From positions 152,150 through 216,149 of the forward strand of contig CAVYIV010000016.1 in NCBI GenBank assembly GCA_963768675.1: DNA of 64,000 nucleotides. The letters run 5' to 3'. Every line of letters begins with the position of its first letter. Position 1 is the first letter of the stretch. The translations under genes and the position numbers were made by a program. Below, piece by piece: positions 30,548 to 47,094 of this stretch. The notes beneath the pieces are model-generated. The model saw only the letters and a list, made by a program, of their open reading frames with translations. It ran no database searches and had not been told where the DNA came from. Source of the stretch: an uncultured Chloroflexia bacterium. Its GTDB lineage: Bacteria; Chloroflexota; Limnocylindria; Limnocylindrales; CSP1-4.

Positions 30548-32047
30548 TTACGCCCGCCGGGCCTTCGCCGCCACGTCGGCCGCCACCCCCGGCAGTGCGT
30601 CGAAGCCCGTTGGCCGGAGCGCGGCGGCGACCTGCCTGACGAGCTCGCCGGCGCGATCGGCATCCACGCTCGTCGGCGACGGCTGAGCGAGCAGGGCGTC
30701 GACCTGCGAACGGGCCCGGTCGAAGGCGTCGGCGCTGCCGGCTTCGAGCCAGGCGCGGAGCGACCCGCGATCCACGACGGCCGAAGGGAGGTGCTGCTCC
30801 TCGCGGAACCGGCGGCGCGTCTCGGGGAGCTCGAGGAAGCGCCCCGCGTAGCCAGCCTCGCGGATCGTGTCGAGCCCGAGCGACCCGTCCGGGAGCGCAA
30901 TGCCGCGCACGAGCCGGAGGGCGCTCGCGATCGCTTCGGCGTCGATCACCAGCTTCTCCGCGCTCTGGCAGCGCAGCGAATCGAGCATCCCGGCACCCGA
31001 GACGAGGTCAATCCCCGCCAGCGCCCCGACGAGCGCGGTCGTCGCGCTCTCGATGCCGGCCTGGGCATCGACCACCTTGGCATCGGTCGCACCCAGGTAG
31101 CCGTGCGTGGGCAGGCCGAGCGAACGCCCGACTGCCGCGTTGCCCGCATCGAGCATCGCCGTCTCGATGGCTCCCATCGGCGTGGCGCCGATCCGCATGT
31201 CGAGGATCGCCGGCGCCCCGCCCCACACGATCGGTGCGCCCGGGGCCGCCGCCTGGTGGATCACGATCCCGGCCAGGCACTCGGCCGCGTGCTGGACGAT
31301 GGAGCCGGCGAGGGCAACCGGCCCAGCACCGCCGGCAAGCGGCATCGACACCATCTGGGCCGGGACACCTGCGCGGGCGAGCCCGACGATGCAGCGCGAG
31401 GCAAACAATGTCCAGTCGAGGGGAGGCGACGGGCAGACGTCAAACACCGCCCGGGGCCGCGCGCGAAGCGCGTCCGTGCCGCCCGCGTCGAGCGCCAGCA
31501 GCTCGAGCATCGGCCCCAGCCCGTCCGCCGTAAACGCGCCGGTTACGACGGGCTTGTCTGAGCCGAGCAGCACGATCAGGAGCCGGTAGCGGTCACCCAG
31601 CTCGGCCGGGACGTCCGAGCAGACGACGGCCGTGGACTGTGCGGCGTAGACGGGAAGGCGCTCGGCGACCGCGACCAGCCGGGCGAGGTCGGCGGCCGTG
31701 GACGGCCGGTGCTCGCCCGTCGCCGGGTCGAGCACCGCCACGCCGCAGGAGCCCGGATCGAAGGCCACCTCGCCCGCGCCGTAGCGAACGGCCGGCGAGC
31801 CGTCGCGGGCGTGGAGCGAGAACGAGTGTGGGACGGTCGCAAGGGCCGCCTGCACGACGCGCTCCGGGATTCGGACGACGCCGTCGCGGACCTCGGCGCC
31901 AACGCCCTGGAGGAGCGCCCGCGCCTCCGGATCGGCCACCCGGACCCCCGGATCGCGAAGCACAGCAAGCGCCTCGTCGAGGATGCGCTCGATACCCGCC
32001 GGCTCGAGCAGGTCGAGCGTCGGGCGGCGTCCGGCCCGCCTGCTCAC
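30548..32047 (-). CDS. MttB-family (trimethylamine/quaternary-amine) corrinoid methyltransferase, non-Pyl, paralog 1
   Basis: From GTG 32047 (GTGA overlap with the upstream stop): LDLLEPAGIERILDEALAVLRDPGVRV...GGAPAILDMRIGATPMGAIE...DSLRCQSAEKLVIDAE. TIM-barrel MttB superfamily pattern with no internal stop. The N-terminal 520 codons of ORF 30548..33616 are shadow. Confidence 0.85.
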   Translation of the reverse strand: MSRRAGRRPTLDLLEPAGIERILDEALAVLRDPGVRVADPEARALLQGVGAEVRDGVVRIPERVVQAALATVPHSFSLHARDGSPAVRYGAGEVAFDPGSCGVAVLDPATGEHRPSTAADLARLVAVAERLPVYAAQSTAVVCSDVPAELGDRYRLLIVLLGSDKPVVTGAFTADGLGPMLELLALDAGGTDALRARPRAVFDVCPSPPLDWTLFASRCIVGLARAGVPAQMVSMPLAGGAGPVALAGSIVQHAAECLAGIVIHQAAAPGAPIVWGGAPAILDMRIGATPMGAIETAMLDAGNAAVGRSLGLPTHGYLGATDAKVVDAQAGIESATTALVGALAGIDLVSGAGMLDSLRCQSAEKLVIDAEAIASALRLVRGIALPDGSLGLDTIREAGYAGRFLELPETRRRFREEQHLPSAVVDRGSLRAWLEAGSADAFDRARSQVDALLAQPSPTSVDADRAGELVRQVAAALRPTGFDALPGVAADVAAKARRA

Positions 32048-33558
32048 CGGACGCGCTCCGTGGCCGTCTCGGCGATCCGGACCAGCTCGTCGGCTAGGAC
32101 GGGGTCGAGCGGCGCGCCCGGCGCCGTCGCGAGCAACTCGAGCGCACGGTCGTGGGCCCGCTCCCGGGCATCCACCCGCGGCGTGCCATCGGGCGAGGGC
32201 GGGCGGCGGTCGACGAGCGCGGGGCTCCAGCGCTCGCGCATGTGGCGGCGGGTGTGGGGCTCGGAGAGGAAGTCGCCCCCCGGCCCGACATCCCGGATGA
32301 CCTCGATGGCCAGCGACTCGTCGTCGACCGTGATGCCCTTGCAGACCCCGCGGACCAGCCCCAGGATCTCGGCGTCGAGCAGGAGCTGCTCGTACGACCA
32401 GATCCGGCTGCCGGCCAGCAGGCCCATGCCGAGGAGCATGTCGGCCCTGCCGACGCAGGCGGCGAGCGCGGCGAGACCGTTCTCCAGGCCGGCCCGCCAG
32501 TCCGGCACGTGCGCGCCGGTCGCGAAGGCGCCCATCGAGAGCGGCACATGGTAGTAATCGGCCAGCTCGCCGGACGCCATCCCGAACAGGACGTCCTCTG
32601 GCCCGCCGCCGGTGTAGGCGCCGGTCCGCAGGTCCATGGCCGTCTGGGCCGCGGCGTAGTAGACGGGCGCCCCCGGCGACGCGAGCTGGATGAGCGCCAG
32701 CGCGGAGAGGACCTCCGCGTTCCCGATCGCCAGCGTGCCGGCCAGCGTTGCCGGCCCCGTGTGTGCGCAGGACGCCATGGTCATGAAGCCGGTGGGAATC
32801 CCGGCTTCCGCAGCGACGAGCGCGGCGTCCAGCGCGCCGCCCTCGTGGGCGAGCGGGCTGATCGTGCAGAAGGTCAGCGAGATCGGCGGCCGGGCCCGTA
32901 CCGCAGCCGCGCTGCCGGAGATCGCGAGCGCGATCTCGACGGCGACCGCCGCCTCGTGAGCGTGCATGACGGTCTCGGTCTGGACGTGCTTCGAGGTGAT
33001 GCTCAAGGCAGCGGCCAGCTCGCGCAGCGGCCGCGTCTCGGCCGGGATGTCCTGCGCCGAGACCGGCATCCAGACGAAGCCGACGTCGGGCAGCTCCTCC
33101 GCCACGCGAGCGATGGAGCTGACATCTGCGAGCGTCGAACGACGCCGCTCGCCGGTGACCGGGTCCGCGACCTCGACGCCGCAGCCGTCGGTAGCGGCCC
33201 AGACATGGTGGCCGTCGAGGGGAAGATCGCGCTCCGTCTCCCGGCCGGCGAGCGTGAACGCCGCCGGGGCACTGCGGAGCGCCGCCTCGACGACGTGCCC
33301 GGGGACGCGCACGATCCCGGTGCCCGGGTCGACCTGGGCACCGTGATCGGCCCAGATCGCCTGGGCCCGGGCGGACGGGAAGCGCACGCCGACCGTCTCG
33401 ATCAGCTCGAGCGTCGCGGCGTGGACGCGCTCGATGGCGGCGGGATCGAGCACCTGGATCCGGATCGCGGGGTCGACGAGCGTTGCCAGCGGCCGGCGCG
33501 TGGTCGGCGCGGGCGGCTGGGTGGGCGCGATTGTGGCCATCGTTGCACCCGGGCTCAC
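32044..33558 (-). CDS. MttB-family corrinoid methyltransferase, non-Pyl, paralog 2
   Basis: Intact 504-aa ORF. LDPAAIERVHAATLELIETVGVRF...YYAAAQTAMDLRTGAYTGGGPE...SYEQLLLDAEILG is collinear with the other two paralogs. GTG 33558 overlaps the corrinoid-protein stop; the alternative start is ATG 33540. Confidence 0.85.
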   Translation of the reverse strand: MSPGATMATIAPTQPPAPTTRRPLATLVDPAIRIQVLDPAAIERVHAATLELIETVGVRFPSARAQAIWADHGAQVDPGTGIVRVPGHVVEAALRSAPAAFTLAGRETERDLPLDGHHVWAATDGCGVEVADPVTGERRRSTLADVSSIARVAEELPDVGFVWMPVSAQDIPAETRPLRELAAALSITSKHVQTETVMHAHEAAVAVEIALAISGSAAAVRARPPISLTFCTISPLAHEGGALDAALVAAEAGIPTGFMTMASCAHTGPATLAGTLAIGNAEVLSALALIQLASPGAPVYYAAAQTAMDLRTGAYTGGGPEDVLFGMASGELADYYHVPLSMGAFATGAHVPDWRAGLENGLAALAACVGRADMLLGMGLLAGSRIWSYEQLLLDAEILGLVRGVCKGITVDDESLAIEVIRDVGPGGDFLSEPHTRRHMRERWSPALVDRRPPSPDGTPRVDARERAHDRALELLATAPGAPLDPVLADELVRIAETATERVR

Positions 33559-34208
33559 GCCTGCACGCCGACGAGCCGGCGAGCGGTGTCGACGGCTGCG
33601 ATCGCGTCCTCGGCATACGCGTCGGCGCCGATCTCCTCGGCCCAGGCGCGCGTGACCGGGGCGCCGCCGACCATCACCTTGACGCGTGGCCGCAGGCCGG
33701 CCGCGCCGAGCGCCTCGACAACCGCGCGCTGCCCGGTCATCGTGGTCGTGAGGAGGGCGGAGACACCGACAAGGCCTGCGTTGACCTCCGCGGCCTTGGC
33801 CGCGAACGCCGCCGGAGCCACGTCGACGCCGAGGTCGTAGACCTCGAAGCCGTTAGCCGACAGCAGCGTTGCCACGAGGTTCTTGCCGATCTCGTGGATG
33901 TCACCGGCCACCGTGCCGAGCACGACGCGGCCCGCCGACGCGCGCCGCTCACCGCCCGCCGTGAGGGCCGGCTCGATCACCCGCATCGCGGCCTGCATCG
34001 CCCGCGCCGCGAGCATCAGGTCGGGCAGGAACAGGTCTCCGTTCGAGAACCCCTCCCCGACCTCCCGCAGTGCCGGCATCGCCGCCTCGTCAATCAGTCG
34101 CAGCGGCGGGACCCCCTCGGCAAGCGCCTGCCGGGCGGCCGCCTCGGCCGCCGCGGGCTCGCCGTCCGTGACGGCCTGGCGCAGAAGGGCGAACGTCGTC
34201 TCGTCCAT
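33555..34208 (-). CDS. cobalamin-binding corrinoid protein (MtbC/MtgC-like)
   Basis: N-terminal helical cap (LFLPDLMLAARAM) plus a B12-binding Rossmann domain with the DxHxxG motif (GDIHEIGKN) and SALLTTTM...VMVGGAP. Start MDETTFALL at ATG 34208. Confidence 0.85.
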   Translation of the reverse strand: MDETTFALLRQAVTDGEPAAAEAAARQALAEGVPPLRLIDEAAMPALREVGEGFSNGDLFLPDLMLAARAMQAAMRVIEPALTAGGERRASAGRVVLGTVAGDIHEIGKNLVATLLSANGFEVYDLGVDVAPAAFAAKAAEVNAGLVGVSALLTTTMTGQRAVVEALGAAGLRPRVKVMVGGAPVTRAWAEEIGADAYAEDAIAAVDTARRLVGVQA

Positions 34209-34294
34209 GAAACACCTCTCGCCGCGTTGCGCGGCGACTCCCCGACACGTACCGCCTCCCGGGGGATGCGGCCTCATCTCTTGGCGCGTCGCCC

Positions 34295-35785
34295 TCAGAG
34301 GCCGGCCCGGGCTTCGGCGCGGGCCACAATCTCGCGGAGCTCGGCTGCGGCGTCATCCGGGAGCGGCAGCGGGACCCGGTTGGCGGCAAGGATCGCGTCC
34401 GCTCGGTCGGCGGCGCGGGCGGCCAGCGCCCGGCCACCCGCGTTGGCCCATGCGCCCCGCGAGCGCCGATCGAACAGCGTCGGGTACCAGCGCGAGCGGT
34501 AGTGAGCCAGGGTATGGTCGGATTCGAGGAAGGAGCCCTCGACCCCGAGCTCGTCGACGAGGTCGAGCGCGAAGGCGTCGTCAGAGAGGTCGACCGGCGC
34601 GGTGGCGGCGCGGGTCCAGCCAACGATCTCGTCGCAGATCGCGAGCTGCGCCAGCGACCCGGCGAGCCCCGACTCGAGGTAGCCGCTGTCGTGCGTGACC
34701 TGACCCGCAGCGAGCGCGTCGAGCAGGATGGCCGCGGCGGCCTCGGCGGCGGCCTGGCCGTCGACGATCTTCGAATCCGCGCCCCCGCCGAGGCTGAACA
34801 TCGGGAACCCCAGGTGGTGGGCCAGCGCCTCCGCAGCACCCTTCGGGTCGGGGCCCACGTAGGGGTCGACCGTCGTGCGCAGATCAAGGGCATCGCCGCC
34901 AAAGCCGGGCACGACAACCGGCGCGCCCTCGCGCACGAGCTGCGCGATCACGATCCCAGCGAGCACGCCCGCGTGGTTGACTGCGAGCGTCCCGGCGAGC
35001 GTGACCGGCCCGGTCGTGCCGCCCGAGGTGACCGGGATCCAGAGCGCCGGGAGCCCGCGCTCGGCGAGGAAGAGGAGCCGGCCGACCGCGTCCTCGTCGA
35101 GGAGGAGCCCGCGCGTCACGTTGATGTACCAGCCGATCGTCGGGCGCGCCGCCTGCTCTCCGGCGCCGCCGGAGACGGCCGCGGCCATCGCGAGGACGTC
35201 CTTGAGCCCGTCGAGCTCGTACGTCACGACGATCAGCGGCTTCGTCGTCCCGGTCAGCATCGCGACGGCCTGGTGGCGATCGGCGACCCGCCCATCGACA
35301 TCCGAGGGCAGGAACATGGACATGGCGAAGGCCATGTTCGGGAGCGCATCGACCAGGGCAATGCCGGCGCGGACGTCGGCAAGCGTGGCGAGGCGCCGCT
35401 CGCCCGTCCGCCCGTCGACGATGTTGGGGCAGTCCGAGCCAGGCCCGAACCAGGCCGTCTCGCCTCCCCAGGCGATCGCCGGCCGGCCCGACCGGTCGTG
35501 CAGGGTGAGCGACTTCGGCGTGACGGCGAGCCCCTCGGCCACGAGCCGCGCCGGGATGCGCACGCGATCGGCCTCGTCGACGCGCGCGCCGGCGGCCGCC
35601 AGCAGGCGCCGCGCCTCCGGGTGGTCGACCCGGACGCCCGTTCGCTCGAGGATCGCGCAGGCCGCTGCCTGGATGCTCGCGCAGCCTTCCTCGCTCAGTC
35701 GCGTCCAGCGGCCGGCGCCGGGCGTGATTGCCGCCGGACCGGACCACTCGTCGGTGCGCACGCGAGCAGTATCCTTTATCGGCAT
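34295..35785 (-). CDS. MttB-family corrinoid methyltransferase, non-Pyl, paralog 3 (first gene of the operon)
   Basis: From MPIKDTARVRTDEWSG (ATG 35785): LSEEGCASIQAAACAILERTGVRV...GFGGDALDLRTTVDPYVGPDP...GSLAQLAICDEIVG, collinear with paralogs 1 and 2. The 81 codons upstream in ORF 34295..36028 run antisense into the integrase gene and are not coding. Confidence 0.85.
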   Translation of the reverse strand: MPIKDTARVRTDEWSGPAAITPGAGRWTRLSEEGCASIQAAACAILERTGVRVDHPEARRLLAAAGARVDEADRVRIPARLVAEGLAVTPKSLTLHDRSGRPAIAWGGETAWFGPGSDCPNIVDGRTGERRLATLADVRAGIALVDALPNMAFAMSMFLPSDVDGRVADRHQAVAMLTGTTKPLIVVTYELDGLKDVLAMAAAVSGGAGEQAARPTIGWYINVTRGLLLDEDAVGRLLFLAERGLPALWIPVTSGGTTGPVTLAGTLAVNHAGVLAGIVIAQLVREGAPVVVPGFGGDALDLRTTVDPYVGPDPKGAAEALAHHLGFPMFSLGGGADSKIVDGQAAAEAAAAILLDALAAGQVTHDSGYLESGLAGSLAQLAICDEIVGWTRAATAPVDLSDDAFALDLVDELGVEGSFLESDHTLAHYRSRWYPTLFDRRSRGAWANAGGRALAARAADRADAILAANRVPLPLPDDAAAELREIVARAEARAGL

Positions 35786-35837
35786 AGTACACTCACCGAA
35801 ACGAGGCTCACGAGGCCGAAGGATTGGAGCACCAGCC

Positions 35838-37208
35838 ATGATGCCACGCGCCGAGAACCACGGGCGGGCCGTCGAGTACCTACGCCGCAGCGTGGAGCGC
35901 GACAAGAGTGCCGATAAGGACCGCGGCGCCGGCCAGCGTGCCGCCAACGCCGCCCAGGCCGCCCGCGATGGCGTGATCATTGCGCGGTCCTTCGATGGTG
36001 ATTGGGGCATCTCCGGCGGCCGTGGCAAGCGCGAGTACCGGCACGCGATGGCCGAGCTAATCGACGCGATCCGCGCCGGCGAAGTCTCCCGCGTCTACTG
36101 CCACACGACCGACCGACTGGCCCGCGACGTCGAGTACGGCATGGCCCTCTGGAACGCCTGCAAGGACGCCGGCACGATCCTCCGCCCTGGCTCGCAGACG
36201 TTCGACCCCCAAGAGCCCGGATACCTAACCCTCTGGACCGTGCTACTCGCTCAGGCCGAAGAAGACCTCGACCGGATGACTAGGAAGAACCACGACCAGA
36301 TCGACTACGGGCGCGACCACGCCCTGACCTGTCCGCTCCCCGGCCGCCCGCACCTTGGCCGATGCCATCTCGTCGGATGCACCGACAAGACCCATTGCAG
36401 CCTAAGCCATGAGCGCGGCCGGAAGCCCTACGGCACCATGCCGGAGGAGGACGCCGCCGCCGTCGTGACCGCCTTCCTCGAAGCCGGCAGCCTGAACGGC
36501 GCTGCCCGCATCTTGAACGACCGCGGCGTACCAACCAAGACGCCCGGCGGACGCTGGTCGGCCCGGACAATCAAGGCCGTCGTGGAGCGGACCACCCCCG
36601 GAACGGTCCCCTACGGTGGCCGGAGAGGAGCGCGCACCGTCGCCCGGCGAGCCCTTGCCGGGCTCCTGCATTGTGGCGGGACCGTCGCGGGAGGCGCGAC
36701 GTGCGGCCACGTCCTGACCTCTAAGCCGCGCCCAGCTGCCACGCGACGCGACGGGACGCCGCGCCAAGCCATAACGCAGTGGATTTGCCCCGACGTCGTA
36801 AACACCACCACGCACAGCAGGCCCCAGGGGATCAGCGAGGCCCGGCTACTCCCGGCGATCATGGCCGAGAGCCTGCATTACCGGGCCCCGGCCGACGAGT
36901 TCACCGCGGCCGAGCGTACGAGCCAGCGCGACAAGCTCACAGCCGACCTTGCCCGCGTGCAACGACTCGCGATCTCTGGCGTACTGGACGAAGACCAGGC
37001 CGCGGCCGAGGCCAAGTCGATCCGGGCCCAGCTCGCCGCCCTCGACCACGCGGCAGCGCCAGTCGCGATACCCCAGGCGATCTCCTGGAGCGCCCCGGCC
37101 GCAGAGCTCAATGGATGGCTGCGTGCTCTGTGGCCCGAGGGTATCGAGCTCGACAGCAACCTCCTACCCGTCCGGTACTCATGGCTCCCGGGATGGCGCC
37201 GTGACTAG
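35838..37208 (+). CDS. large serine recombinase (integrase)
   Basis: N-terminal resolvase-type catalytic domain (AVEYLRRSVERD with candidate nucleophile Ser; TDRLARDVEYGMALW), a recombinase domain (GRKPYG...GSLNGAARILNDRGVPTKTPGGRWSARTIKAVV), a Cys-rich zinc-ribbon region (LLHCGG...TCGHVL...WICP) and a C-terminal coiled coil (RDKLTADLARVQRL...AAEAKSIRAQLAAL). Start ATG 35838 follows GGAG. Confidence 0.85.
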   Translation: MMPRAENHGRAVEYLRRSVERDKSADKDRGAGQRAANAAQAARDGVIIARSFDGDWGISGGRGKREYRHAMAELIDAIRAGEVSRVYCHTTDRLARDVEYGMALWNACKDAGTILRPGSQTFDPQEPGYLTLWTVLLAQAEEDLDRMTRKNHDQIDYGRDHALTCPLPGRPHLGRCHLVGCTDKTHCSLSHERGRKPYGTMPEEDAAAVVTAFLEAGSLNGAARILNDRGVPTKTPGGRWSARTIKAVVERTTPGTVPYGGRRGARTVARRALAGLLHCGGTVAGGATCGHVLTSKPRPAATRRDGTPRQAITQWICPDVVNTTTHSRPQGISEARLLPAIMAESLHYRAPADEFTAAERTSQRDKLTADLARVQRLAISGVLDEDQAAAEAKSIRAQLAALDHAAAPVAIPQAISWSAPAAELNGWLRALWPEGIELDSNLLPVRYSWLPGWRRD

Positions 37209-37361
37209 ACAGCGCCCGCGCCTCTGGATCAAACGGCCCGGCCCACCAGCCGGGCCGTTCCACGTCCCGGGATCGCACGCCCAGGGTAGGCAGAGACGAC
37301 GCCACGCGTAGCCGGAGCATACGCTACACGTATACCACCCCTAGGGTCACAGGCGCCGCAT

Positions 37362-37379
37362 ACCACAAGATGTTGTGGT
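37362..37379. promoter_or_regulatory. inverted repeat ACCACAA-GATG-TTGTGGT (operator-like) abutting the -35 box
   Basis: Perfect 7-bp arms, 8 nt upstream of the TTGACA at 37387. A second palindrome GCGTCAC-AG-GTGACGC lies at 37464-37479, and a GTCACAGG half-copy at 37346-37353. Confidence 0.35.
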
Positions 37380-37386
37380 TCCCGCA

Positions 37387-37415
37387 TTGACAGAGGCTTG
37401 CTCCCGCGGTACATT
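37387..37415 (+). promoter_or_regulatory. sigma-70/SigA-type promoter (TTGACA-17 nt-TACATT) for the rightward ORF chain
   Basis: Exact -35 consensus TTGACA (37387-37392), a 17-nt spacer and -10 TACATT (37410-37415). It lies in the 560-nt gap after the integrase gene in otherwise very G+C-rich DNA. Confidence 0.5.
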
Positions 37416-37557
37416 GGGCCCGCAGTAGGGAAGCCGGCAGCCGCGAAAGCCCGGTAGCTCCCAGCGTCACAGGTGACGCGCTCCGGGGCCGCGAGGCCGG
37501 AGCCACTTTCGCAGCCACGGCGCGACCCGCGCCGCCAGCTCGAAAGCAGGCGCACTC

Positions 37558-37761
37558 GTGACCTCCGCACCCGCAGAACCCACCTTCGGCGCCCACATGG
37601 GGCCCAGCGCGGCCGGCAGGATCGGCAGCGCAAAACGGTGGGGCCCTCCCCGCAGGATCAACCTCCGAGACATGGACGAGGCCGGCCGCCGGATCGTGCT
37701 AGCCAGCGTCGCCGCCGTCCGCGCAGAGCACGCGCGAGACACCGCCGCGGCCCAGAAGTAG
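37558..37761 (+). CDS. hypothetical small protein (weak call)
   Basis: 67-aa ORF downstream of the promoter and the only +strand ORF before the coupled chain. No clear SD; internal starts at 37600 and 37669 are possible. Confidence 0.25.
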   Translation: MTSAPAEPTFGAHMGPSAAGRIGSAKRWGPPRRINLRDMDEAGRRIVLASVAAVRAEHARDTAAAQK

Positions 37762-37770
37762 GCCGGCGCC

Positions 37771-38454
37771 GTGACCCGCGGAGAAGGCTTGCAGCGAGCC
37801 GATATCGACTCGTCTCTACTCACCGACCCGAAGCTACGCCGACTCCGGCGCCAGCTCCCGGACGCCGCCCAGATGGCCCGCGCCGTGGTCCTGTACCTCG
37901 CAGCCCTCCTCGACTCGTGGAGGACCGGAGAGCGAGTCTCCGCGGAGGACGCGGCCCCCGAATGGATCGAGGCCGACGCCGGCACGCTCGCCGCGCTCGT
38001 GGCCGCCGATCTCCTCGACAACGAGTACCGCGTCCCGCTCCACGCCTGGACCGCGTGGCACGACCCCGCCGTGCAGCGCATCTCCCAGAACCGCGAGAAG
38101 GCCCAGCTAGGAGGACTCCGCGCCCGCGGGGCCCGGACCCGCGACGAGGCCGAGGCTATGCGCGCAGCCCTCAACAGCCCAGCTATCAGCCCAGCTATCA
38201 GCGCCACTGATACACCAGCCAGCCAGCCAGCCACACCTACAGGGCCCAGCCAGCCGCTAGGAGTAGAGAACACTCCGCCGGCCGGAGCGAAGACACGAAC
38301 CGCGAAGCCCTCAGATGACGACGAACGACGCCGAGAGGCCGCGGCAGCCCACGCCTACGAGCTCGACGCGAAGTACCGGCCCAGCATCCCGACCGACCCG
38401 CGCCCCCTTCGGGACATCGTGGCCCAGCTCGCCCAGACAGGAGCGCCAGCATGA
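37771..38454 (+). CDS. hypothetical element protein (helical N-domain, low-complexity linker, acidic C-terminus)
   Basis: First ORF of a chain linked by ATGA/GTGA overlaps. The N-terminal part (DSSLLTDPKLRRLRRQLPDAAQMARAVVLYLAALLDSWRTGERV) faintly resembles phage replisome-organiser/DUF1376-type N-domains, but this is not established. It contains in-frame tandem repeats (PAIS x2). Confidence 0.55.
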   Translation: MTRGEGLQRADIDSSLLTDPKLRRLRRQLPDAAQMARAVVLYLAALLDSWRTGERVSAEDAAPEWIEADAGTLAALVAADLLDNEYRVPLHAWTAWHDPAVQRISQNREKAQLGGLRARGARTRDEAEAMRAALNSPAISPAISATDTPASQPATPTGPSQPLGVENTPPAGAKTRTAKPSDDDERRREAAAAHAYELDAKYRPSIPTDPRPLRDIVAQLAQTGAPA

Positions 38455-38666
38455 CCGACCCCGAAGACCTCGAACACCGACGCCGCCGGCACGAGCGGCT
38501 AGACGGTACGGGCAGCCCGACCCACAACGGCGCCGAGCTCCGCCGACGCGAACGCTTCGACGTGGCCCGCAGGATCGACCGGCGCGAGCTCAAACGCTGG
38601 ACGCTCGAACGCTTGCAGGCGATGGAGCGCCGCATTGACACCCTCGAACGGGAGGCCCGGCCGTGA
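38451..38666 (+). CDS. hypothetical small coiled-coil protein
   Basis: ATGA overlap with the upstream stop, with AGGAG 6 nt upstream. Arg/Glu-rich helical sequence. Confidence 0.5.
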   Translation: MTDPEDLEHRRRRHERLDGTGSPTHNGAELRRRERFDVARRIDRRELKRWTLERLQAMERRIDTLEREARP

Positions 38667-39256
38667 GCATGGCGGCCGGAGGCGCCCGGCCCGCGACCAT
38701 GCCCGAGCTCATGACCGCGCACACGCCGGAGCCGCCTAGCGCCGCCGATGCGCTCAGGAGAGCCAGCCGCCGGCACCGCGCCGCTATCGAGCGCCTAGAG
38801 CGTGCCCGGGATGCGACCACGGCCGCGCTCGCAGCGAACGAGGAGCCGACGCCGGGCAGCTCACGCCAAGCGAACAGCGCCCGTATCGCCCTCGACGCCG
38901 CGCTAGCCGAAGTCTCCGAAGCCAGCGCCGCGCTCGTGGAAGCATGGCGCCGCCGCGCCCAGGCCGGCCCAGAACAAGCCGGGCCCGAACAGCTCGCAGA
39001 GGCCCGCGAGCTCCAGGCCCAGGGTGCCCAGCTCGCCGGCCGGACCCGCGCCTACCTCCGAGCCATCCTCGAAGACGGGCGAGAGCTCGACGCCGAAGCG
39101 CGCGAATGGCGCGCGGCAGCGTCCGACTTCCAAGCCGCCAACGCGCTACGCATAGACCGGAGCGCGGTCGAACCCCTCGCAGACCTCGCAGCGTGGACGA
39201 CGCTAGCCGCCGCCGTCCGGTCCGCGCTGGACTACCTCCCGGAGCCGAGACGGTGA
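38663..39256 (+). CDS. hypothetical Ala/Glu-rich helical protein
   Basis: GTGA overlap with the upstream stop, with GGGAGG 7 nt upstream. Contains the in-frame repeat GPEQAGPEQ. Confidence 0.5.
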   Translation: MSMAAGGARPATMPELMTAHTPEPPSAADALRRASRRHRAAIERLERARDATTAALAANEEPTPGSSRQANSARIALDAALAEVSEASAALVEAWRRRAQAGPEQAGPEQLAEARELQAQGAQLAGRTRAYLRAILEDGRELDAEAREWRAAASDFQAANALRIDRSAVEPLADLAAWTTLAAAVRSALDYLPEPRR

Positions 39257-39588
39257 CCCACACAGCCGCTCACAGACTGCTAGAGCTCGCCCGGAAGCGA
39301 GCCTTGACCCACACGTCACCAACGCCGGCACCAACGCCGGCACCAACGCCACCAACGCCGCCGGCCCGTGAATACCTCGAACCGCGCGACCTCCCAAACG
39401 ACGACCTCTTGTGGCACTCATGGCGGGCCCAGGAGGCGACGAGACGACTACAGGAGGCCGCCGGGCAGACGCCGGACGCCGTGTATTCGCCGCCGGCCCG
39501 CCTATCGGCCGAGGAGCGCCGCGCCGCCCTCGAACGTCTCCGGGCAGCCAACCGCTACCCAGGCGACCACGAGGAGGCCGACGAATGA
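39253..39588 (+). CDS. hypothetical protein with TPAP repeat
   Basis: GTGA overlap with the upstream stop. 12-nt tandem repeat CACCAACGCCGG (39317-39362) encodes (TPAP)n. In frame within ORF 38944..39588. Confidence 0.5.
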   Translation: MTHTAAHRLLELARKRALTHTSPTPAPTPAPTPPTPPAREYLEPRDLPNDDLLWHSWRAQEATRRLQEAAGQTPDAVYSPPARLSAEERRAALERLRAANRYPGDHEEADE

Positions 39589-39950
39589 GAGCCGCCCACG
39601 TCGAGCCGCCCAGCCTCAGATGCGGACAGCTCCACGACCCACGCCTAGCCGCCGGCCGACTCTCGCAGACGTGCCCCCGGTGCGGGCGGTCGGAGGCCGC
39701 GCACTGGTATTGCTCCTGGTGCGTCCGGCCGATGACGCCGGCCAACTGGTACGAAGACAAGCGCGGCAGCGACGAGGCCGCCCGCCGTATGCCGAAGACC
39801 GCACCGGCCGACCCGCCGACCGAGCTACGCGAGCACTGGCCGCCGTCGTGGGGCCCGAAACCCCGCCAGAAGGCCGCCAGCGCCCCCCAGGAGGCCGCAG
39901 ACACCCCGGAACCCCTAAACGTGGCCCAGAACACCACCGCAGCAGCGTAG
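39585..39950 (+). CDS. hypothetical zinc-ribbon protein
   Basis: ATGA overlap with the upstream stop. CPRC-x9-CSWC four-Cys motif (TCPRCGRSEAAHWYCSWC). Confidence 0.5.
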   Translation: MRAAHVEPPSLRCGQLHDPRLAAGRLSQTCPRCGRSEAAHWYCSWCVRPMTPANWYEDKRGSDEAARRMPKTAPADPPTELREHWPPSWGPKPRQKAASAPQEAADTPEPLNVAQNTTAAA

Positions 39951-39964
39951 AGAGGATCGCCAGC

Positions 39965-40666
39965 ATGACAACGCTCTATGTCTTCAGGACCGCCGAGGCG
40001 CCGTCGCTCACCGTCGGCCCAGGACTCCGAGGCGACGACGCGACCACAGTGCAGTTTGTCCCGGGCCCGGACGGGGCAGGGTACGCCGAGATCAGCTCAG
40101 ACGACCCGAACCTAGCGCGCAAGCTCGCATGGATCACGAGCGCCCGGAACCTGTACCGGATCGAGGCAGTAGAGGCCGACTCCCGGCCGACGCCCGACGC
40201 CACCCTCTGCGACATGGAATGGTGCCCGGTCGGGATGGATCAACGGGCCGGCAGGGTCCCGCACGTGGCAGCGCCACATGATGCGCCACGCCCCGGGAGG
40301 CGACCTCCCCAAGCCCCGCGCGAACGTGACCACGAGCGGCCCGGAGTTTGCCCGATGAGCCCGCAGCCCTTCGACCGCCACCAACTAGGCCGCTACCTCG
40401 AAGCGAAGCTAGCCGGCCGTGAGCCCGAGCCGATCCCGGGCCCGGCCCCGACGCAGACGCTCGCAGACGTGGCGCGCAACGCCATCCGAGCCAGCGACCA
40501 GGAGGAGGGAACCCCCAACGACACCACATCCCGCCGCGCGTTCCTGTCTCTAGGAGTCTCCGGCCGGGAGGCTCTGGCCGACGAGAACAACCCCAACCAC
40601 GAGGCCGCAGCCGAGCTCTACGCGAAGTTGGCCGAGCTCGAACGCAGGAAGGACCGGAGCGCATGA
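39965..40666 (+). CDS. hypothetical protein
   Basis: ATG 39965 lies 14 nt after the previous stop, preceded by GAGAGGA (MTTLYVFRTAEAPSLTV...). 233 aa, the largest product of the chain, with no recognisable motif. Confidence 0.5.
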   Translation: MTTLYVFRTAEAPSLTVGPGLRGDDATTVQFVPGPDGAGYAEISSDDPNLARKLAWITSARNLYRIEAVEADSRPTPDATLCDMEWCPVGMDQRAGRVPHVAAPHDAPRPGRRPPQAPRERDHERPGVCPMSPQPFDRHQLGRYLEAKLAGREPEPIPGPAPTQTLADVARNAIRASDQEEGTPNDTTSRRAFLSLGVSGREALADENNPNHEAAAELYAKLAELERRKDRSA

Positions 40667-40950
40667 CCGACCACCGACCACCCAGCGAGGACGCTAAAGA
40701 GCTCCAGCGCATCCGGGAGGGTATCGCCAAGGCGAGGGAGGACGCCGCGGCCGGCCGACACCCCGCCCATTGGCAGCCGAAGTACAGCGAGCTCCGGCGC
40801 CACCTGTCCGCGGTCGGGGCCGCGGCCCCGATCCCGGACGACCCAACCACGAAGCCCAAGGACAAGCGACCCGGGCGATACCACCTCGACGCCTACAACG
40901 TCCCCTATTGGCAGGAAGACCCAGAACCGCAGGAAGGCGAGACACGATGA
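40663..40950 (+). CDS. hypothetical small protein
   Basis: ATGA overlap with the upstream stop, with GGAG 5 nt upstream. Confidence 0.5.
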   Translation: MTDHRPPSEDAKELQRIREGIAKAREDAAAGRHPAHWQPKYSELRRHLSAVGAAAPIPDDPTTKPKDKRPGRYHLDAYNVPYWQEDPEPQEGETR

Positions 40951-41297
40951 GCACCCCGAAGACCTCGAACAAGACCGACACGGGACACCCGGCCGCGGGG
41001 CACCCGTCCGACTTCGGCCCGGCCGACGCCAACACGACGGGCCCGGGATCATTCCCGACGCACCCGACGACCCTACCGGGCAGCGGAGGCCCGGCACATG
41101 AGCCGTTGAAGGTCAACAGCGGACCCGTCCCGGGAGGCTGGGGCACCTCGACCGGAAAGCGCGCGACCGGGAACCTCCCCGGACTCGACCACCCCTCGGA
41201 CGCAGGCGACCGCGTGACCCCGGCCGGACCAGCCGCCCAGCCGAACCCCAAGCTAGCCGGAGCCGGCGCCACGAAGAAGGCGCCGCCCAACAAGTAG
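40947..41297 (+). CDS. hypothetical Pro/Gly-rich protein
   Basis: ATGA overlap with the upstream stop. Low-complexity, probably disordered product. Confidence 0.45.
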   Translation: MSTPKTSNKTDTGHPAAGHPSDFGPADANTTGPGSFPTHPTTLPGSGGPAHEPLKVNSGPVPGGWGTSTGKRATGNLPGLDHPSDAGDRVTPAGPAAQPNPKLAGAGATKKAPPNK

Positions 41298-41413
41298 ACG
41301 CGGCAGGGCCGACCCGATCCCGGCCCACCGCGTCAAACGGGCCGGCCGGTGGACTTCCCCCAATCGGTCGGCCCGACACCTACGGCCGGCGCGATGTAGG
41401 CACGCCAGCCACA

Positions 41414-41443
41414 GGGGCCCGGACTGGTAGCGGTCCGGGCCCC
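41414..41443 (+). terminator. GC-rich hairpin between ORF blocks (attenuator/terminator-like, no U tract)
   Basis: GGGGCCCGGAC (41414-41424) pairs with GTCCGGGCCCC (41433-41443), giving an 11-bp perfect stem and an 8-nt loop. It is followed by AGGAG and ATG 41467. Confidence 0.35.
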
Positions 41444-41466
41444 GCACCTCGACAGGAGCCGACCAG

Positions 41467-41835
41467 ATGACCGACACGAACGGACCCGACCCGGGATACA
41501 CGAAGCCCGGCCGCCGCGGAATGGTGCACGATGCCGACCTCGACGTATGGATGGACCCAGCGACCGCGGACTACATGGAGAACGCCGCCGGCCGCGGCAT
41601 CCCGGGCCCGGCCCTGCCACGCTCGAAGCGCGGCCGCAGCGCGCCCAAGCCGAAGGCCACCGGCAGCGCCGCCAGGATCGCCGACCTCGCCCATCAGATC
41701 GCCGCGGAGGCCCAGGCGATGACCTCGAACGCGCCGACGGAGGCGCCGCCAGCGGTGGAGCGAGCCGAGGAGCAGACGCCTGTCCCAGCCGCGACCCCGC
41801 ACGAGCTCGCCGTAGCGGAGCAGGGGCAGCCGTGA
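41467..41835 (+). CDS. hypothetical protein
   Basis: AGGAG lies 8 nt upstream of the ATG. 122 aa with a basic middle (KRGRSAPKPK). Confidence 0.5.
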   Translation: MTDTNGPDPGYTKPGRRGMVHDADLDVWMDPATADYMENAAGRGIPGPALPRSKRGRSAPKPKATGSAARIADLAHQIAAEAQAMTSNAPTEAPPAVERAEEQTPVPAATPHELAVAEQGQP

Positions 41836-41974
41836 ACGAGCCGCAGAGCCGACCCTAGTGGTGCACCCACGCCTACGCAAGAGCCAGCGGGCCCTAGGCT
41901 CCGACCCCGGCCGGTAGGACACTGGATCCCCCAAGGAGGATACGCGCGACCCCGGACCACCCTTAGGCCCAGAA

Positions 41975-42193
41975 ATGGAGCAGTCCTTGCCCTACGCCGA
42001 CCCCGAGAAGAAACGCGCTTACGACCGCGCCCACCGCGAGCAGCACGCCGCAGTCCAGCGCACCTACTACGCCGCCCACCGCAAGGCCATCCTCCGACAG
42101 AAGGCGGCCTATGACTCCGCCCATTGTTCGGATCGGATGATCGCTCGCCTCAGGCTAGACGGCCAGCGAGCCCTAGAGCCCTTCACCGCGTGA
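41975..42193 (+). CDS. hypothetical small protein with YADPEKKRAY motif
   Basis: 72-aa ORF. Its N-terminus, PYADPEKKRAYDRAHREQHAAVQRTYYAAHRKA, is paralogous to the next ORF. Confidence 0.45.
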   Translation: MEQSLPYADPEKKRAYDRAHREQHAAVQRTYYAAHRKAILRQKAAYDSAHCSDRMIARLRLDGQRALEPFTA

Positions 42194-42534
42194 GTTACGC
42201 CGATCCCGAGCGACGCCGCGCTTACTGGCGCGCCTACCACGCAGCGCGCCCCAAGGAGCACGCCGCGGCCCAGCGCCGATACGCCGCCACGCCGAAAGGA
42301 CGAGAGGCCGCGGCCCGGTCCCACTGGAAGGAGTACAAGCAGAACCTACGCCAGCGCATCGCCGACGGCCCCGCCAAGATCGCCGCCCTAGAGGCCGAAC
42401 TAGACGAGCTCCTCGCAGTACCGCAGCGTGCCGATGCGTCGCCCAGCGTACCGGCCAGTACAAGGCCCGAGACAGACGATGGGGCAGACGCGCTCATCGT
42501 CGCAGTCTGGCGTCACGTCACCGCGAGGCCCTGA
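42190..42534 (+). CDS. hypothetical protein with YADPERRRAY motif (tandem paralog)
   Basis: GTGA overlap with the upstream stop (VSYADPERRRAYWRAYHAARPKEHAAAQRRYAATPKGREA...), followed by a coiled-coil segment. Confidence 0.45.
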   Translation: MSYADPERRRAYWRAYHAARPKEHAAAQRRYAATPKGREAAARSHWKEYKQNLRQRIADGPAKIAALEAELDELLAVPQRADASPSVPASTRPETDDGADALIVAVWRHVTARP

Positions 42535-42856
42535 AACAGCCCCGGGGGTAGGAAGGACACTCGCGCCGCGGCCAACTTCCGCGCCGTACAACCCGGCGGG
42601 GCCCGGTGGGTGTCGCACTTGGCGCGACGGCAGAGCTCGCCGGCCGAGCCGACCGGCACGCGACCGACCGCGCCAGATGATGCGGAGCCGTGCACTCCTG
42701 GGCGGTGCGGTGCGTTCTATTTGTGCTCAGTGGGACGAGTGTACCCATACCGAGCGATTAAGACTCGACTCCCACGAGCACGCGGCGCCGATCACGCGCA
42801 ACCGTCCGCGAGCGTGCACCGGGCGAGTCATGGGGCCGCACGCATTCCTCACAGAA

Positions 42857-43017
42857 CCTATCAAGCCGGTCCGATGCTGCCCGGCGCCTATCAGCTCGAC
42901 CAGCAAGAGCTAGCCCGCCGCTCTGATAGCACGAGGCGCCTGCCGGCGCCAAGAGGACCCTGCCGCGGTATCGCTGCTGATAGCCGGACCGTGGACACTG
43001 GGGCCGCCTTCTGATAC
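42857..43017. repeat. cluster of CTATCA(G) motifs in a 650-nt non-coding, lower-G+C region
   Basis: Forward copies are CCTATCA at 42857-42863 and 42887-42893. Inverted copies are TGATAG at 42924-42929 and 42978-42983, and TGATAC at 43012-43017. CTATCAG also occurs twice in tandem inside the gene at 38183-38201. Confidence 0.35.
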
Positions 43018-43187
43018 GTACAGCGTCTAGTCAACGTGGACTCTGCGGCACCGCTCACCCTACGTCAGGCGTAGGCCCACGATGTGCACCCAGGCGCCCG
43101 CACCGTGCAGCGCATGCCGCGGCAGGGACCCTCCTCGGCCGAGCAGAGGACCTTGGCGGGCAAGCATCCGCGCGTAGACTGCGGGGC

Positions 43188-43733
43188 ATGAGTTGGGTTG
43201 ACCGGCTCCTTCGTGCGGTTGGCATCGCACAAGGAGCATATTTCCTCTGGTTCACGATAGGTACATCGGTAGTTGTGGCCGGTGCAATGGCGGGCATCCT
43301 GGCAGCAATCAGCGGACTGCCTACCTGGTCCATCGGGGTGATTGCAGTGGGGCTGTTCTTTGTTGGACTCGGCGTGGTCAACGCACTTGCCGTCGCGATC
43401 TCAGGTCGGCTCGTACCGAGGTCGGAGCCCTATCACGCACTGACGCGAGTGATTGAGGATGGCCGCCGACTTCGTGAGCGCTTGAGCGCGCTGGACACAG
43501 ACCCCACCGAGCAGGAACAGGCCGAGTGGACGGTCCGTCTCAAGGACTGGAACGACGCTGCGGACGCAACGGTCGCGCGGGTCGCACCTTTCCGGCTTGC
43601 CGCGTTCAGGGTGGACCTCATCATCGCCGATTACCCCGGGCGCAGGCAGGGTCGCCCCAAACAGATCGCCCAATGGGAACTCGACGTGGAAACGACCCTA
43701 GAGCGTTTGCTCTATATCCGAGTAACGCTCTAG
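43188..43733 (+). CDS. hypothetical membrane protein (3 TM helices plus a cytoplasmic helical domain)
   Basis: 181-aa ORF with hydrophobic segments (AYFLWFTIGTSVVVAGAMAGILAAI, WSIGVIAVGLFFVGLGVVNALAVAI). Codon usage is visibly richer in A/T-ending codons than in the flanking genes. Confidence 0.6.
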   Translation: MSWVDRLLRAVGIAQGAYFLWFTIGTSVVVAGAMAGILAAISGLPTWSIGVIAVGLFFVGLGVVNALAVAISGRLVPRSEPYHALTRVIEDGRRLRERLSALDTDPTEQEQAEWTVRLKDWNDAADATVARVAPFRLAAFRVDLIIADYPGRRQGRPKQIAQWELDVETTLERLLYIRVTL

Positions 43734-43807
43734 TCAGCAGCCTGGCGAGCTCCGCGCCCGTCCAGATGTAATCGCCGCGGCTCCGACGCTAGACTCACCG
43801 CGCCCCG

Positions 43808-44272
43808 TCACTGCGGGACGTTCTGCTGGACCCAGTAGTTGATCGCGTCGCACTTGTCGCTGAACGCCTGGTTGGCGTCATAGATCGCCTTGTAGGCTGC
43901 GTCGAACTGGTCCATCGTCATCGGTCGAGCGAAGGCTGACGCGCCGGCGACGAGAGCCGAATGCAGCGCTGCGACCTCGGCGTCCGCGCCGGTCCCTGAG
44001 AAGCCCGCGACCAGCGCGGCGTCCTTCTTGGCCGCCGCCGCTGCCACCTTGCGCGCGATTGTCACGTCGCCCAGGGTCGAGAAGTAGAGCTGCTCGGCGG
44101 CGGGCGCGTCGGTCCCGAAGTTGTAGATGCTGGCGAGCGCGCAGGCGTCAGCCTGCGCCTTCGTGTAAGTCGGCGTGGGGGCCGCAGGCGTCGCCGCCGC
44201 CCCGCCGCCGGAGCACCCGGCAAGGGCCAACACCGCTGCCATGACCCCGCCGGTAAAGCCGCGTGTAAGCAT
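43808..44272 (-). CDS. hypothetical lipoprotein
   Basis: MLTRGFTGGVMAAVLALAGCSGG is a lipobox (LAGC) signal peptide, followed by an Ala-rich helical mature domain ending CDAINYWVQQNVPQ. ORF 43808..44320 offers an upstream TTG start, but ATG 44272 fits the signal peptide. Confidence 0.6.
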   Translation of the reverse strand: MLTRGFTGGVMAAVLALAGCSGGGAAATPAAPTPTYTKAQADACALASIYNFGTDAPAAEQLYFSTLGDVTIARKVAAAAAKKDAALVAGFSGTGADAEVAALHSALVAGASAFARPMTMDQFDAAYKAIYDANQAFSDKCDAINYWVQQNVPQ

Positions 44273-45135
44273 CGCCGCCGCCTTCTTGACTCCCCCCGCC
44301 ACTCTGAACCTCGCGCCCAACGACCGCTGACTCGCCCGATGGCGTCGCTCGGGATGCCGATCTCGGCTAGGAACTCGGGCTCCTGCACAACCGGGACCCC
44401 GTACTCCTTCGCCCGTTGGAGGTTGCCGGTGACCTCCTCCGGGTCCGCGACGATGAGCGCGTGCGTCTTCTTGGTGAGGCGAGGGAGCACGTCACATTGG
44501 GCCCACCGGGCGAGCATCACCTGGGCGTGCCGGTCAAGTGGGACCCCGTAAACGGTGGTTCCCATCTCGCCCGTGAACGCGATCATCTTCCCGACCCACG
44601 GGTGGGCAGCGATTGGGGCCCGGTCGTCCGTGACCATCTCCGCGGCGCATTCGCCGGGCGTGCCGAGATGCAGGACCACGCCGACCCCTTCGCGCTCTGG
44701 GACTCGGGCCGCGTCGCAAGCTACCGCCGTTGTCATATCCGACTTGGAAGCCGCAAGGTGCCGGAATAGGGGCTGGTACGCGATTGCGTCATAGCGCGAC
44801 AGGTAGCCCGCCTGCGTCCATGCGCCGCCCGCCCACAGGTGCACGCCTATCGCGTTCGGGTCGTACTGGTTCGTCGGTTCCGGGATCAGCATCGCCTTGA
44901 AGAACCCGACGGGCGGCGGCGGGAGTCCCGGAGGTAGGTCATCGGGGCCCGGGGGACGCGCGGCTCGTAAGTTCTCCTGCCTATAGAACTCGCCGACGAC
45001 CTGCACGGCTGCGTCGTCGCGCATCCCTGTGAAGGCCGTGAAGTGCAGCCTGATCTCGTGGATGCCGGTATCGCGGCCACGCTGCCCGCTTGGCGACGCC
45101 GTCGGGGTGCCTCGCAGTCGTCGCAGGAAGCCCAT
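44062..45135 (-). CDS. HIRAN domain - BRCT domain protein (3' end uncertain)
   Basis: ATG 45135 follows GGAGGG. HIRAN signature VVGEFYRQENL...IPEPTNQYDPNAIGVHL...AGYLSRYDAIAYQPLF. BRCT-like C-terminal domain GKMIAFTGEMG...LTKKTHALIVADPEEVTGNLQRAKEYGVPVVQEPEFL. The last ~90 codons are Arg-rich, overlap the lipoprotein gene and are probably not real. Confidence 0.65.
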   Translation of the reverse strand: MGFLRRLRGTPTASPSGQRGRDTGIHEIRLHFTAFTGMRDDAAVQVVGEFYRQENLRAARPPGPDDLPPGLPPPPVGFFKAMLIPEPTNQYDPNAIGVHLWAGGAWTQAGYLSRYDAIAYQPLFRHLAASKSDMTTAVACDAARVPEREGVGVVLHLGTPGECAAEMVTDDRAPIAAHPWVGKMIAFTGEMGTTVYGVPLDRHAQVMLARWAQCDVLPRLTKKTHALIVADPEEVTGNLQRAKEYGVPVVQEPEFLAEIGIPSDAIGRVSGRWARGSEWRGESRRRRRCLHAALPAGSWQRCWPLPGAPAAGRRRRLRPPRRLTRRRRLTPARSPASTTSGPTRPPPSSSTSRPWAT

Positions 45136-45405
45136 CGCCACACCCTCCGAGCCATAAGCGCGAGTGCAGGCTAGGCTCCTATTCTGCGCCTGCCGGCGCC
45201 GTCCCATGCCTCCCAGGAGCCAGCAGGAAGCCCCAGCACGAGCGAGCGCGCGGGCCGATGGTATCCGCGTGCTGAATGGCCCTGTCTTCGGGACTACTTG
45301 GTCCTACACGTCGGGCATCGGACCTCCCTCGGCGCGAGGGTGCCGGGCCTCCCAACATGTCCGCCAGTGCGAAATGGCCCGTTGCTGCGGGCGGCGCAAC
45401 GAATA

Positions 45406-45438
45406 GCGAGGCCCCGGCCGTCCCGGCCGGGGCCTCGC
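45406..45438 (-). terminator. groEL terminator hairpin
   Basis: GCGAGGCCCCGGCC (45406-45419) pairs with GGCCGGGGCCTCGC (45425-45438), giving a 14-bp perfect stem and a 5-nt loop 22 nt after the groEL stop. On the minus strand it is followed by UAUUCGUU. Confidence 0.6.
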
Positions 45439-45460
45439 GCTGCCTGCCTGAGGGAGCGGA

Positions 45461-47094
<1,634 letters not shown>

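Follow-up and report, generated by a model that had tools for sequence, protein, structure and literature searches.

We analysed a 64,000-nucleotide stretch of DNA (the window, by which we mean this whole stretch) from an uncultured Chloroflexia bacterium of the Limnocylindrales lineage CSP1-4 (GenBank assembly GCA_963768675.1, contig CAVYIV010000016.1, positions 152,150 to 216,149 of the forward strand). On its minus strand, the window carries an operon of three mttB-like methyltransferase genes and a corrinoid protein gene, and a divergent gene for a serine recombinase (integrase) begins close to the first gene of this operon, mttB-like 1. Comparison with related loci indicates, with a high degree of confidence, that a 9537-nt serine-recombinase element is inserted at a GA dinucleotide in codon 3 of mttB-like 1. 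Insertion at this point would leave the native leader of the operon, its GGGAGG ribosome-binding site and the first bases of the gene, ATG CCC GA, about 9.5 kb away, and the operon in its integrated state would be without transcription and translation signals of its own. Any expression would have to come from weak signals at the element end, namely TACTAT followed by GGTGAG-ATG or AAGGA-GTG, and precise excision would restore the native gene. We consider this explanation, structure and function taken together, to be likely; that the integrated element in fact leaves the operon silent, or its expression strongly reduced, has in our view a somewhat better than even chance.

On the plus strand, positions 35779-35785 read TCGGCAT, and the corresponding minus-strand ATG at 35785-35783 opens a frame of 496 codons that extends to 34295 and codes for an MttB-superfamily methyltransferase without an in-frame TAG. 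A sequence-only reading of the window had given these letters and a gap of 52 nt to the divergent integrase start, and both are correct: the gap comprises 35786-35837, exactly 52 nt, and the integrase ATG stands at 35838. The same reading took the ATG of mttB-like 1 to be native and directly abutted by the element. In this respect, the boundary was misplaced by 12 nt: the crossover core lies at 35773-35772, and the ATG and the three codons that follow it are derived from the element.

This placement comes from 11 element-free orthologous loci that include the 5' flank (L001-L006, L008-L010, L012 and L039). The closest relative at the N-terminus, L039, reads ATG CCC GAT ACT GCT TTC GTG CGC ACC at the start of the gene, and the left junction in the window reads ATG CCG ATA AAG GAT ACT GCT CGC GTG CGC ACC. 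The right junction agrees with the empty site up to ...ATGCCCGA, and the left junction agrees with it from GATACT onward. The sole bases that are common, in register, to both junctions and to the empty sites of the relatives are GA, and empty-site comparison thus places the crossover core at 35772-35773 for the true left junction (GA on the gene strand, TC on the plus strand) and at 45311-45312 (minus strand) for the right junction. The host-site sequence around the cut, as preserved in L039, is ATGCCCGATACT. When the two flanks in the window were joined by script, the product aligned with L039 without gaps, with 135 of 150 positions identical and a perfect match across the join, and this in silico product reads the ortholog-type ATG CCC GAT ACT behind the native leader.

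A non-palindromic core of 2 bp, with no longer target duplication, is a hallmark of serine recombinases. Judged by eye, the host arm and the element arm have in common, in register, CCGAT at -9 to -5 and the core, and nothing more. A target-site duplication was rejected, since only the 2-bp GA is common in register, as was a transposon, and a crossover at the first CCGAT was rejected because the right junction that it predicts differs from the one observed.

Because the orthologs read ATG CCC GAT and the crossover falls in codon 3, the ATG at 35785 is not the native start. Judged from these alignments, everything to the right of 35773, this ATG included, is element DNA. The element-derived codons ATG CCG ATA AAG (MPIK; 35774-35785, minus strand) lead in frame to native codon 3, GAT, where the orthologs have ATG CCC GAT ACT. 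The 12 element bases, ATGCCGATAAAG, keep the frame open, with MPIK in place of the native MP and no stop between the element-supplied ATG and native codon 3 of mttB-like 1. Finding ATGCCGATAAAGGAT at the mttB start of an element-free genome of the same lineage would contradict this structure.

No blastn match to the interval between the cores, 35774-45310, was obtained from 14 related loci with syntenic flanks, and the junction is no product of chance. In the same comparison, the loci are colinear for groEL on the upstream side, for the 5.2-kb operon itself, and for uvrD and ligA on the downstream side, and L012 has an uninterrupted run of groEL with its terminator, the leader and the mttB gene. 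In four public metagenomes, contigs of relatives match the window up to 35770-35773, where the match ends, and none of these contigs covers 35776-35843.

The other half of the divided host site is found at the right junction. All 11 orthologs have a conserved leader consisting of the box GGGCCATTYCGCACTGGCGGA, the block CCCGGCACGCTCGCG, a GGAGG ribosome-binding site and then ATGCC. The box occurs once per ortholog, 40-60 nt upstream of the mttB start (11 of 11), and both box and block are near-invariant despite variable flanks. The only copy of the box in the window reads GGGCCATTTCGCACTGGCGGA and lies at the right junction (45380-45360, minus strand), within a displaced native leader at 45319-45392 (minus strand) that, as in the orthologs, contains a strong ribosome-binding site (GGGAGG, 45328-45323). 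This leader is followed by the orphaned native start, ATG CCC GA, which runs on into element bases as a four-codon stub, MPDV and then a stop (45304-45318, minus strand). Because the 11 orthologs carry the leader directly before the gene and the window has its one copy at the right junction, the operon has been severed from its native expression signals, as the sequence-only reading had proposed. That reading had named as contrary evidence the presence of the 35786-35837 sequence upstream of orthologous operons in element-free relatives; none of the 11 has it.

The leader box and block probably represent a promoter/operator of the operon or a leader RNA. An Rfam search of 35500-45700, leader included, gave no match at E values up to 1. 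RNAalifold predicts a hairpin just after the Shine-Dalgarno (SD) sequence, in which GGGCC pairs with GGUCC, without compensatory change. A reading of the leader, by eye, as a sigma-54 or extracytoplasmic function (ECF) promoter was rejected: GG-N10-GC is wrongly spaced for it, and conservation is lacking at the candidate -12/-10 positions; the box and the second block gave no clear sigma-70 reading.

The new 5' end of the operon offers only modest signals in place of this leader. The sequence-only reading had found "no good SD" before the ATG at 35785. This holds for GGAGG-type sites, of which there is none, but a weak SD-like sequence, GGTGAG (35792-35797, minus strand), is situated 6 nt upstream of the ATG. 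With the canonical anti-SD assumed in place of the 3' tail of the host's own 16S rRNA, the predicted duplex energies are -7.6 kcal/mol for GGTGAG, -6.5 kcal/mol for a second site, AAGGA, and -13.4 kcal/mol for the native GGGAGG; by this predicted pairing, the element-supplied ribosome-binding site is not comparable to the native one. AAGGA (35776-35772) is made of the last element bases and the core, and it lies 10 nt upstream of an alternative start codon, GTG at 35759-35761 (minus strand).

As for transcription, consensus scans of the whole element detected no promoter of the sigma-70 type directed at the operon. A relaxed scan for TANNNT on the minus strand of 35740-36500 found two hexamers, a weak and distant one and TACTAT at 35784-35789, which is a candidate -10 element of an outward promoter. 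TACTAT shares its TA with TACACT on the opposite strand, and the two stand back to back. It has a poor -35 (3/6) and no extended -10, and we regard this putative promoter as a coherent but weak candidate. Its transcript is predicted to begin near 35777 and would skip the ATG at 35785 while carrying AAGGA-GTG. A view that nothing here could serve expression would be too strong, given the weak SD with its ATG, AAGGA with its GTG, and one -10-like hexamer, all of them candidates.

The start codon that mttB-like 1 actually uses is uncertain. An exact look-up of its product returned only a 488-aa form, P0149, which begins at the GTG at 35761; neither the ATG at 35785 nor any longer upstream start is on record. 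The 14 cluster mates of P0149 are almost all of 494 residues, which corresponds to the native form on element-free contigs. The first ~10 residues vary among ortholog N-termini and precede the Pfam domain, and an active enzyme would probably be made from either the ATG at 35785 or the GTG at 35761. For annotation, this means that the start of mttB-like 1 is not readable from the sequence alone, with an ATG supplied by the element, a recorded call that differs from it, and the regulatory region 9.5 kb away.

These same signals admit a different view of the insertion, which we consider possible although it has clearly the lesser claim: the element end might act as a replacement cassette, in which an outward-firing -10 pair and either AAGGA-GTG or GGTGAG-ATG keep the operon expressed under element control. 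TACTAT, one of only two TANNNT hexamers within 760 nt on its strand, is positioned at the junction; the recorded gene call uses the GTG at 35761; and in a related element (L168, described below), the element end supplies GAGGAG upstream of a host GTG. Warman et al. reported back-to-back -10 elements with start sites 23 bp apart as a configuration of bidirectional promoters (bioRxiv 10.1101/2020.01.31.928960), and the predicted starts of the pair in the window are likewise ~23 bp apart. A precedent for the outcome exists in the HK022 promoter that drives torS (PMC6814406). However, the -35 matches at 3 of 6 positions, an extended -10 is lacking and the site did not pass the consensus scan. The outward TANNNT partner, as judged by eye, is absent from the related elements L166, L168 and L174 and is therefore no trait of the family. 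Both SD-like sites are weak. Finally, the in-frame ATG is a poor sign of design, since no stop interrupts the frame for more than 80 codons upstream and an in-frame start is unsurprising in DNA of 70% G+C.

Several points weigh against our preferred explanation, that of an operon parted from its signals and silenced or much reduced. Its ancestral site is derived from relatives and not from the same strain. No excised or circular form, and no second copy of the element, was found in public data. None of the public sequencing runs screened for the strain holds it (sampled-word shares <=0.14), and loss of expression is consequently an inference. The comparison of ribosome-binding sites depends on the assumed anti-SD noted above. 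We know of no established promoter rules for the host Chloroflexota lineage. The reading frame is also intact, and with an in-frame ATG behind a weak SD as well as AAGGA-GTG, the operon may still be expressed. A wetland metatranscriptome contains RNA-derived contigs of relatives that are 85-90% identical; transcription of the orthologous gene in nature is therefore probable, which is uninformative for this strain. Compared with its relatives, the methyltransferase operon in this strain is probably either silenced or rewired.

It is also conceivable, but we think improbable, that the element is a regulated switch, as in active lysogeny, that holds the operon off until regulated excision rebuilds ATG CCC GAT and the leader. 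The native reading returns exactly when the flanks are joined, the conserved residues of the recombinase suggest that it is catalytically intact, and serine-integrase prophages act in this manner in spsM (PMC5499854) and comK (PMC7397523). On the other hand, no recombination directionality factor was recognised, no excised or empty form of the strain was seen in public data, no developmental programme is known in the lineage, and nothing sets this arrangement apart from plain insertional inactivation.

An assembly artefact, in which a free element was wrongly joined to the chromosome, is very improbable. The window does come from a metagenome-derived contig of 353 kb, and no reads of the strain were mapped on it, only sequences of relatives being matched. 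Yet the junctions are reciprocal and base-exact around a 2-bp core and jointly rebuild a conserved site, and a chimeric join would not give two matching recombinant junctions 9.5 kb apart. Scarcely credible is the original geometry, with a native ATG at 35785, an element end at 35786, and TCGGCAT and TCGGGCAT as a target duplication: ATGCCGA on the left does resemble ATGCCCGA on the right, but the left junction has six extra bases and one C fewer than the ortholog ATG CCC GAT ACT, the first CCGAT as crossover predicts a right junction that is not observed, and serine recombinases as a family leave a 2-bp core and not an 8-bp duplication.

The integrase gene (35838-37208, plus strand) codes for a protein of 456 aa with a Pfam Resolvase domain (PF00239; residues 11-149, 39.7 bits against a cut-off of 23.3). 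The Recombinase domain PF07508, which is recorded for the homologue P0013, scores 18.4 bits in the window protein, under its cut-off of 21.1. The zinc ribbon PF13408 is carried by the homologues P0016, P0022 and P0025, and the window integrase has no Pfam match for a zinc ribbon. Residues that are invariant in 13 integrase homologues include Y14-L-R-R-S18, with the nucleophile serine, and R93/R96 (in DRLAR), and it is from these that the recombinase looks catalytically intact; the cysteines C279 and C317 are likewise invariant. The start ATGATG at 35838 agrees with the MMPR or MMAR N-termini of homologues.

From the core to the integrase ATG downstream of it, the distance is 65 nt; a core just upstream of the integrase start is the arrangement of many serine-integrase phages. 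The attachment-site arm adjoining the integrase gene (the "P arm", 35774-35797, minus strand) was delimited as an inverted repeat of the other element end. This repeat is weak and imperfect, with 10 of 24 positions matching, and each arm has TACT at 13-16 bp from the core. The 52 nt at 35786-35837 (plus strand) constitute the promoter and leader region of the integrase, with GGAG at 35826-35829, 8 nt upstream of the ATG. TACACT (35788-35793, plus strand) is the likely -10 of the integrase gene; the window and the related loci L166, L168 and L174 all have TACA(C/A)T ~45 nt before the integrase ATG.

No sequence match to the integrase was found among PDB sequences, 50,697 phage records or 72,556 plasmid records. 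A large protein collection holds 27 relatives, all metagenomic, and relatives in L166/L167, L168 and L171 stand first in comparable rows of small genes, 7-10 kb in length and all on one strand. In three related loci (L172 1-3224, L173 1-749 and L170 1-549), the integrase gene is preceded by same-strand genes, with no divergent host gene; such loci may be free (unintegrated) or circularly permuted related elements. L166 (85-130) and L174 (2655-2700) resemble each other in a stretch, CTCGTGGAC.AG.GCGAG.CCCCAC, that precedes the integrase gene by ~65-90 nt; this may reflect homologous target genes or a conserved part of the element end. An 817-nt contig from a soil metagenome (run X2) shares 86% identity with the integrase gene over its 5' half (window 35851-36296), and by this measure a much closer relative of the element than any full-length homologue exists in soil.

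Searches aimed at further integration sites were less productive. A 15-mer from the element end had 103 matches in viral contigs, all of them chance (flanks 25-40% identical). Metagenome contigs scanned for a 21-mer of the junction yielded 0 matches, and a scan of metagenome contigs for the integrase protein gave one short locus that is uninformative as to the target site. The outcome of this analysis is a pair of sites, host and element, for a clade of serine integrases without a match in the structures and in the phage and plasmid collections searched.

The element also differs from its host in composition. Along its plus strand (~36-43 kb), A exceeds T (AT skew of +0.2 to +0.43) and C exceeds G, whereas the host flanks are near zero; such a composition is unusual for DNA of 70% G+C. 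At the right end, the orphaned leader faces minus-strand cargo genes of the element, coding for a HIRAN-BRCT protein (from ~45135-45207 down) and a lipoprotein (44320-43808). No terminator was predicted between leader and cargo (43808-45318, minus strand). The element may have captured a host promoter to drive this cargo.

On the host side, the part of mttB-like 1 that is host-derived, from native codon 3 on, occupies 34295-35771 (minus strand; Pfam MTTB and NCBIfam matches). Its product scores 282 bits with Pfam MTTB and below the cut-off of the NCBIfam trimethylamine model, and it is 86-94% identical to the orthologous proteins. The operon continues on the minus strand with the corrinoid protein gene (33555-34277), mttB-like 2 (32044-33558) and mttB-like 3 (30548 to ~32095), and is followed by uvrD/pcrA and then ligA. 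By blastn, the 5.2-kb operon is colinear across 12 related loci. Three MttB-family paralogs with a corrinoid protein presumably serve the demethylation of quaternary amines.

A second member of the element family, L168, is integrated at a different gene. Its integrase is 58% identical to that in the window and is divergent from a host permease gene, with a gap of 59 nt. The host operon codes for an ATP-binding cassette (ABC) transporter ATPase, a binding protein, two permeases and an aminotransferase (polyamine-type), and the gene that was hit is the first permease gene. In four element-free contigs (L175-L178), 76 nt separate the binding-protein gene from the permease gene that comes next. 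Agreement of L168 with these contigs begins only at the GC that immediately precedes the GTG start (L168 4060-4210 vs 2881-3030), and permease orthologs have the same N-terminus as L168. The element thus lies in mid-operon, with a cut between -2 and ~codon 3; the other junction is not on the contig. The native GAGGGAG is replaced in L168 by GAGGAG from the element, 12 nt upstream of the start. According to the protein name given by its source, the L168 host is a Limnocylindrales-type bacterium.

Both host sites, that of mttB in the window and that of the permease gene in L168, consist of a strong SD, GAGGGAG, the start codon, codon 2 and then the cut, which falls in codon 3 in the window and possibly at the first two bases of codon 3 in L168. 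Two cases hint at a preference for the 5' ends of genes and do not make a rule. A bolder proposal, which we rate as unlikely, is that this small, hitherto undescribed integrase clade aims at translation-initiation regions and that its integration is a reciprocal exchange of expression signals. The host operon would receive from the element end a bidirectional -10 pair together with a start codon and a purine run that resembles an SD. The element, for its part, would gain the conserved and presumably substrate-responsive mttB leader as a driver of its minus-strand HIRAN-BRCT and lipoprotein genes.

Overall, the event is of a known kind, here in a little-studied soil lineage of Chloroflexota. 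The large serine integrase of phage Bxb1 uses a short non-palindromic central dinucleotide and a target inside groEL1 of Mycolicibacterium smegmatis, a high-G+C organism. As with Bxb1, the insertion described here is in a host gene of a high-G+C bacterium; in contrast to Bxb1, groEL is only an upstream neighbour.

Further parallels are found in elements that interrupt genes reversibly. The SPbeta element with its serine integrase SprA resides in spsM of Bacillus subtilis (PMC5499854), and a Listeria prophage resides in comK (PMC7397523). As in those cases, a serine-integrase element lies within a protein-coding gene, the integrase gene is beside the attachment site, and excision would rebuild the gene. 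Unlike those cases, the cut is in codon 3 and parts a four-gene operon from its promoter and leader instead of splitting a frame in mid-gene. Excision is regulated in spsM and comK, whereas here a directionality factor was not recognised. The SPbeta and comK systems also differ in that the window integrase is without a match to solved structures or to the phage and plasmid records searched.

With regard to displaced promoters, HK022 integrated at torS of Escherichia coli provides an experimentally established case, in which a phage promoter beside the attachment site drives torS and the native promoter is displaced (PMC6814406). In both systems, a host gene is parted from its promoter and regulator site, and DNA adjacent to the attachment site becomes the new upstream region. 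The integrase of HK022 is, however, a tyrosine integrase and the insertion is upstream of the coding sequence, and the promoter proposed for the window is a weak candidate recognised by its sequence. With regard to altered reading frames, islands and prophages with dusA-specific integrases contribute DNA that forms a new 5' end of the reading frame (PMC4482086, PMC8409611). These elements resemble the one described here in site-specific insertion within the 5' end of a conserved gene. They differ in that they use tyrosine integrases and are found in many genomes at one target, whereas we describe a single instance with four codons unlike the native ones. What is new in the present case is the element-derived start codon, the uncertainty as to which start is used, the comparison of 5' ends, a candidate bidirectional promoter core, and a second member of the family.

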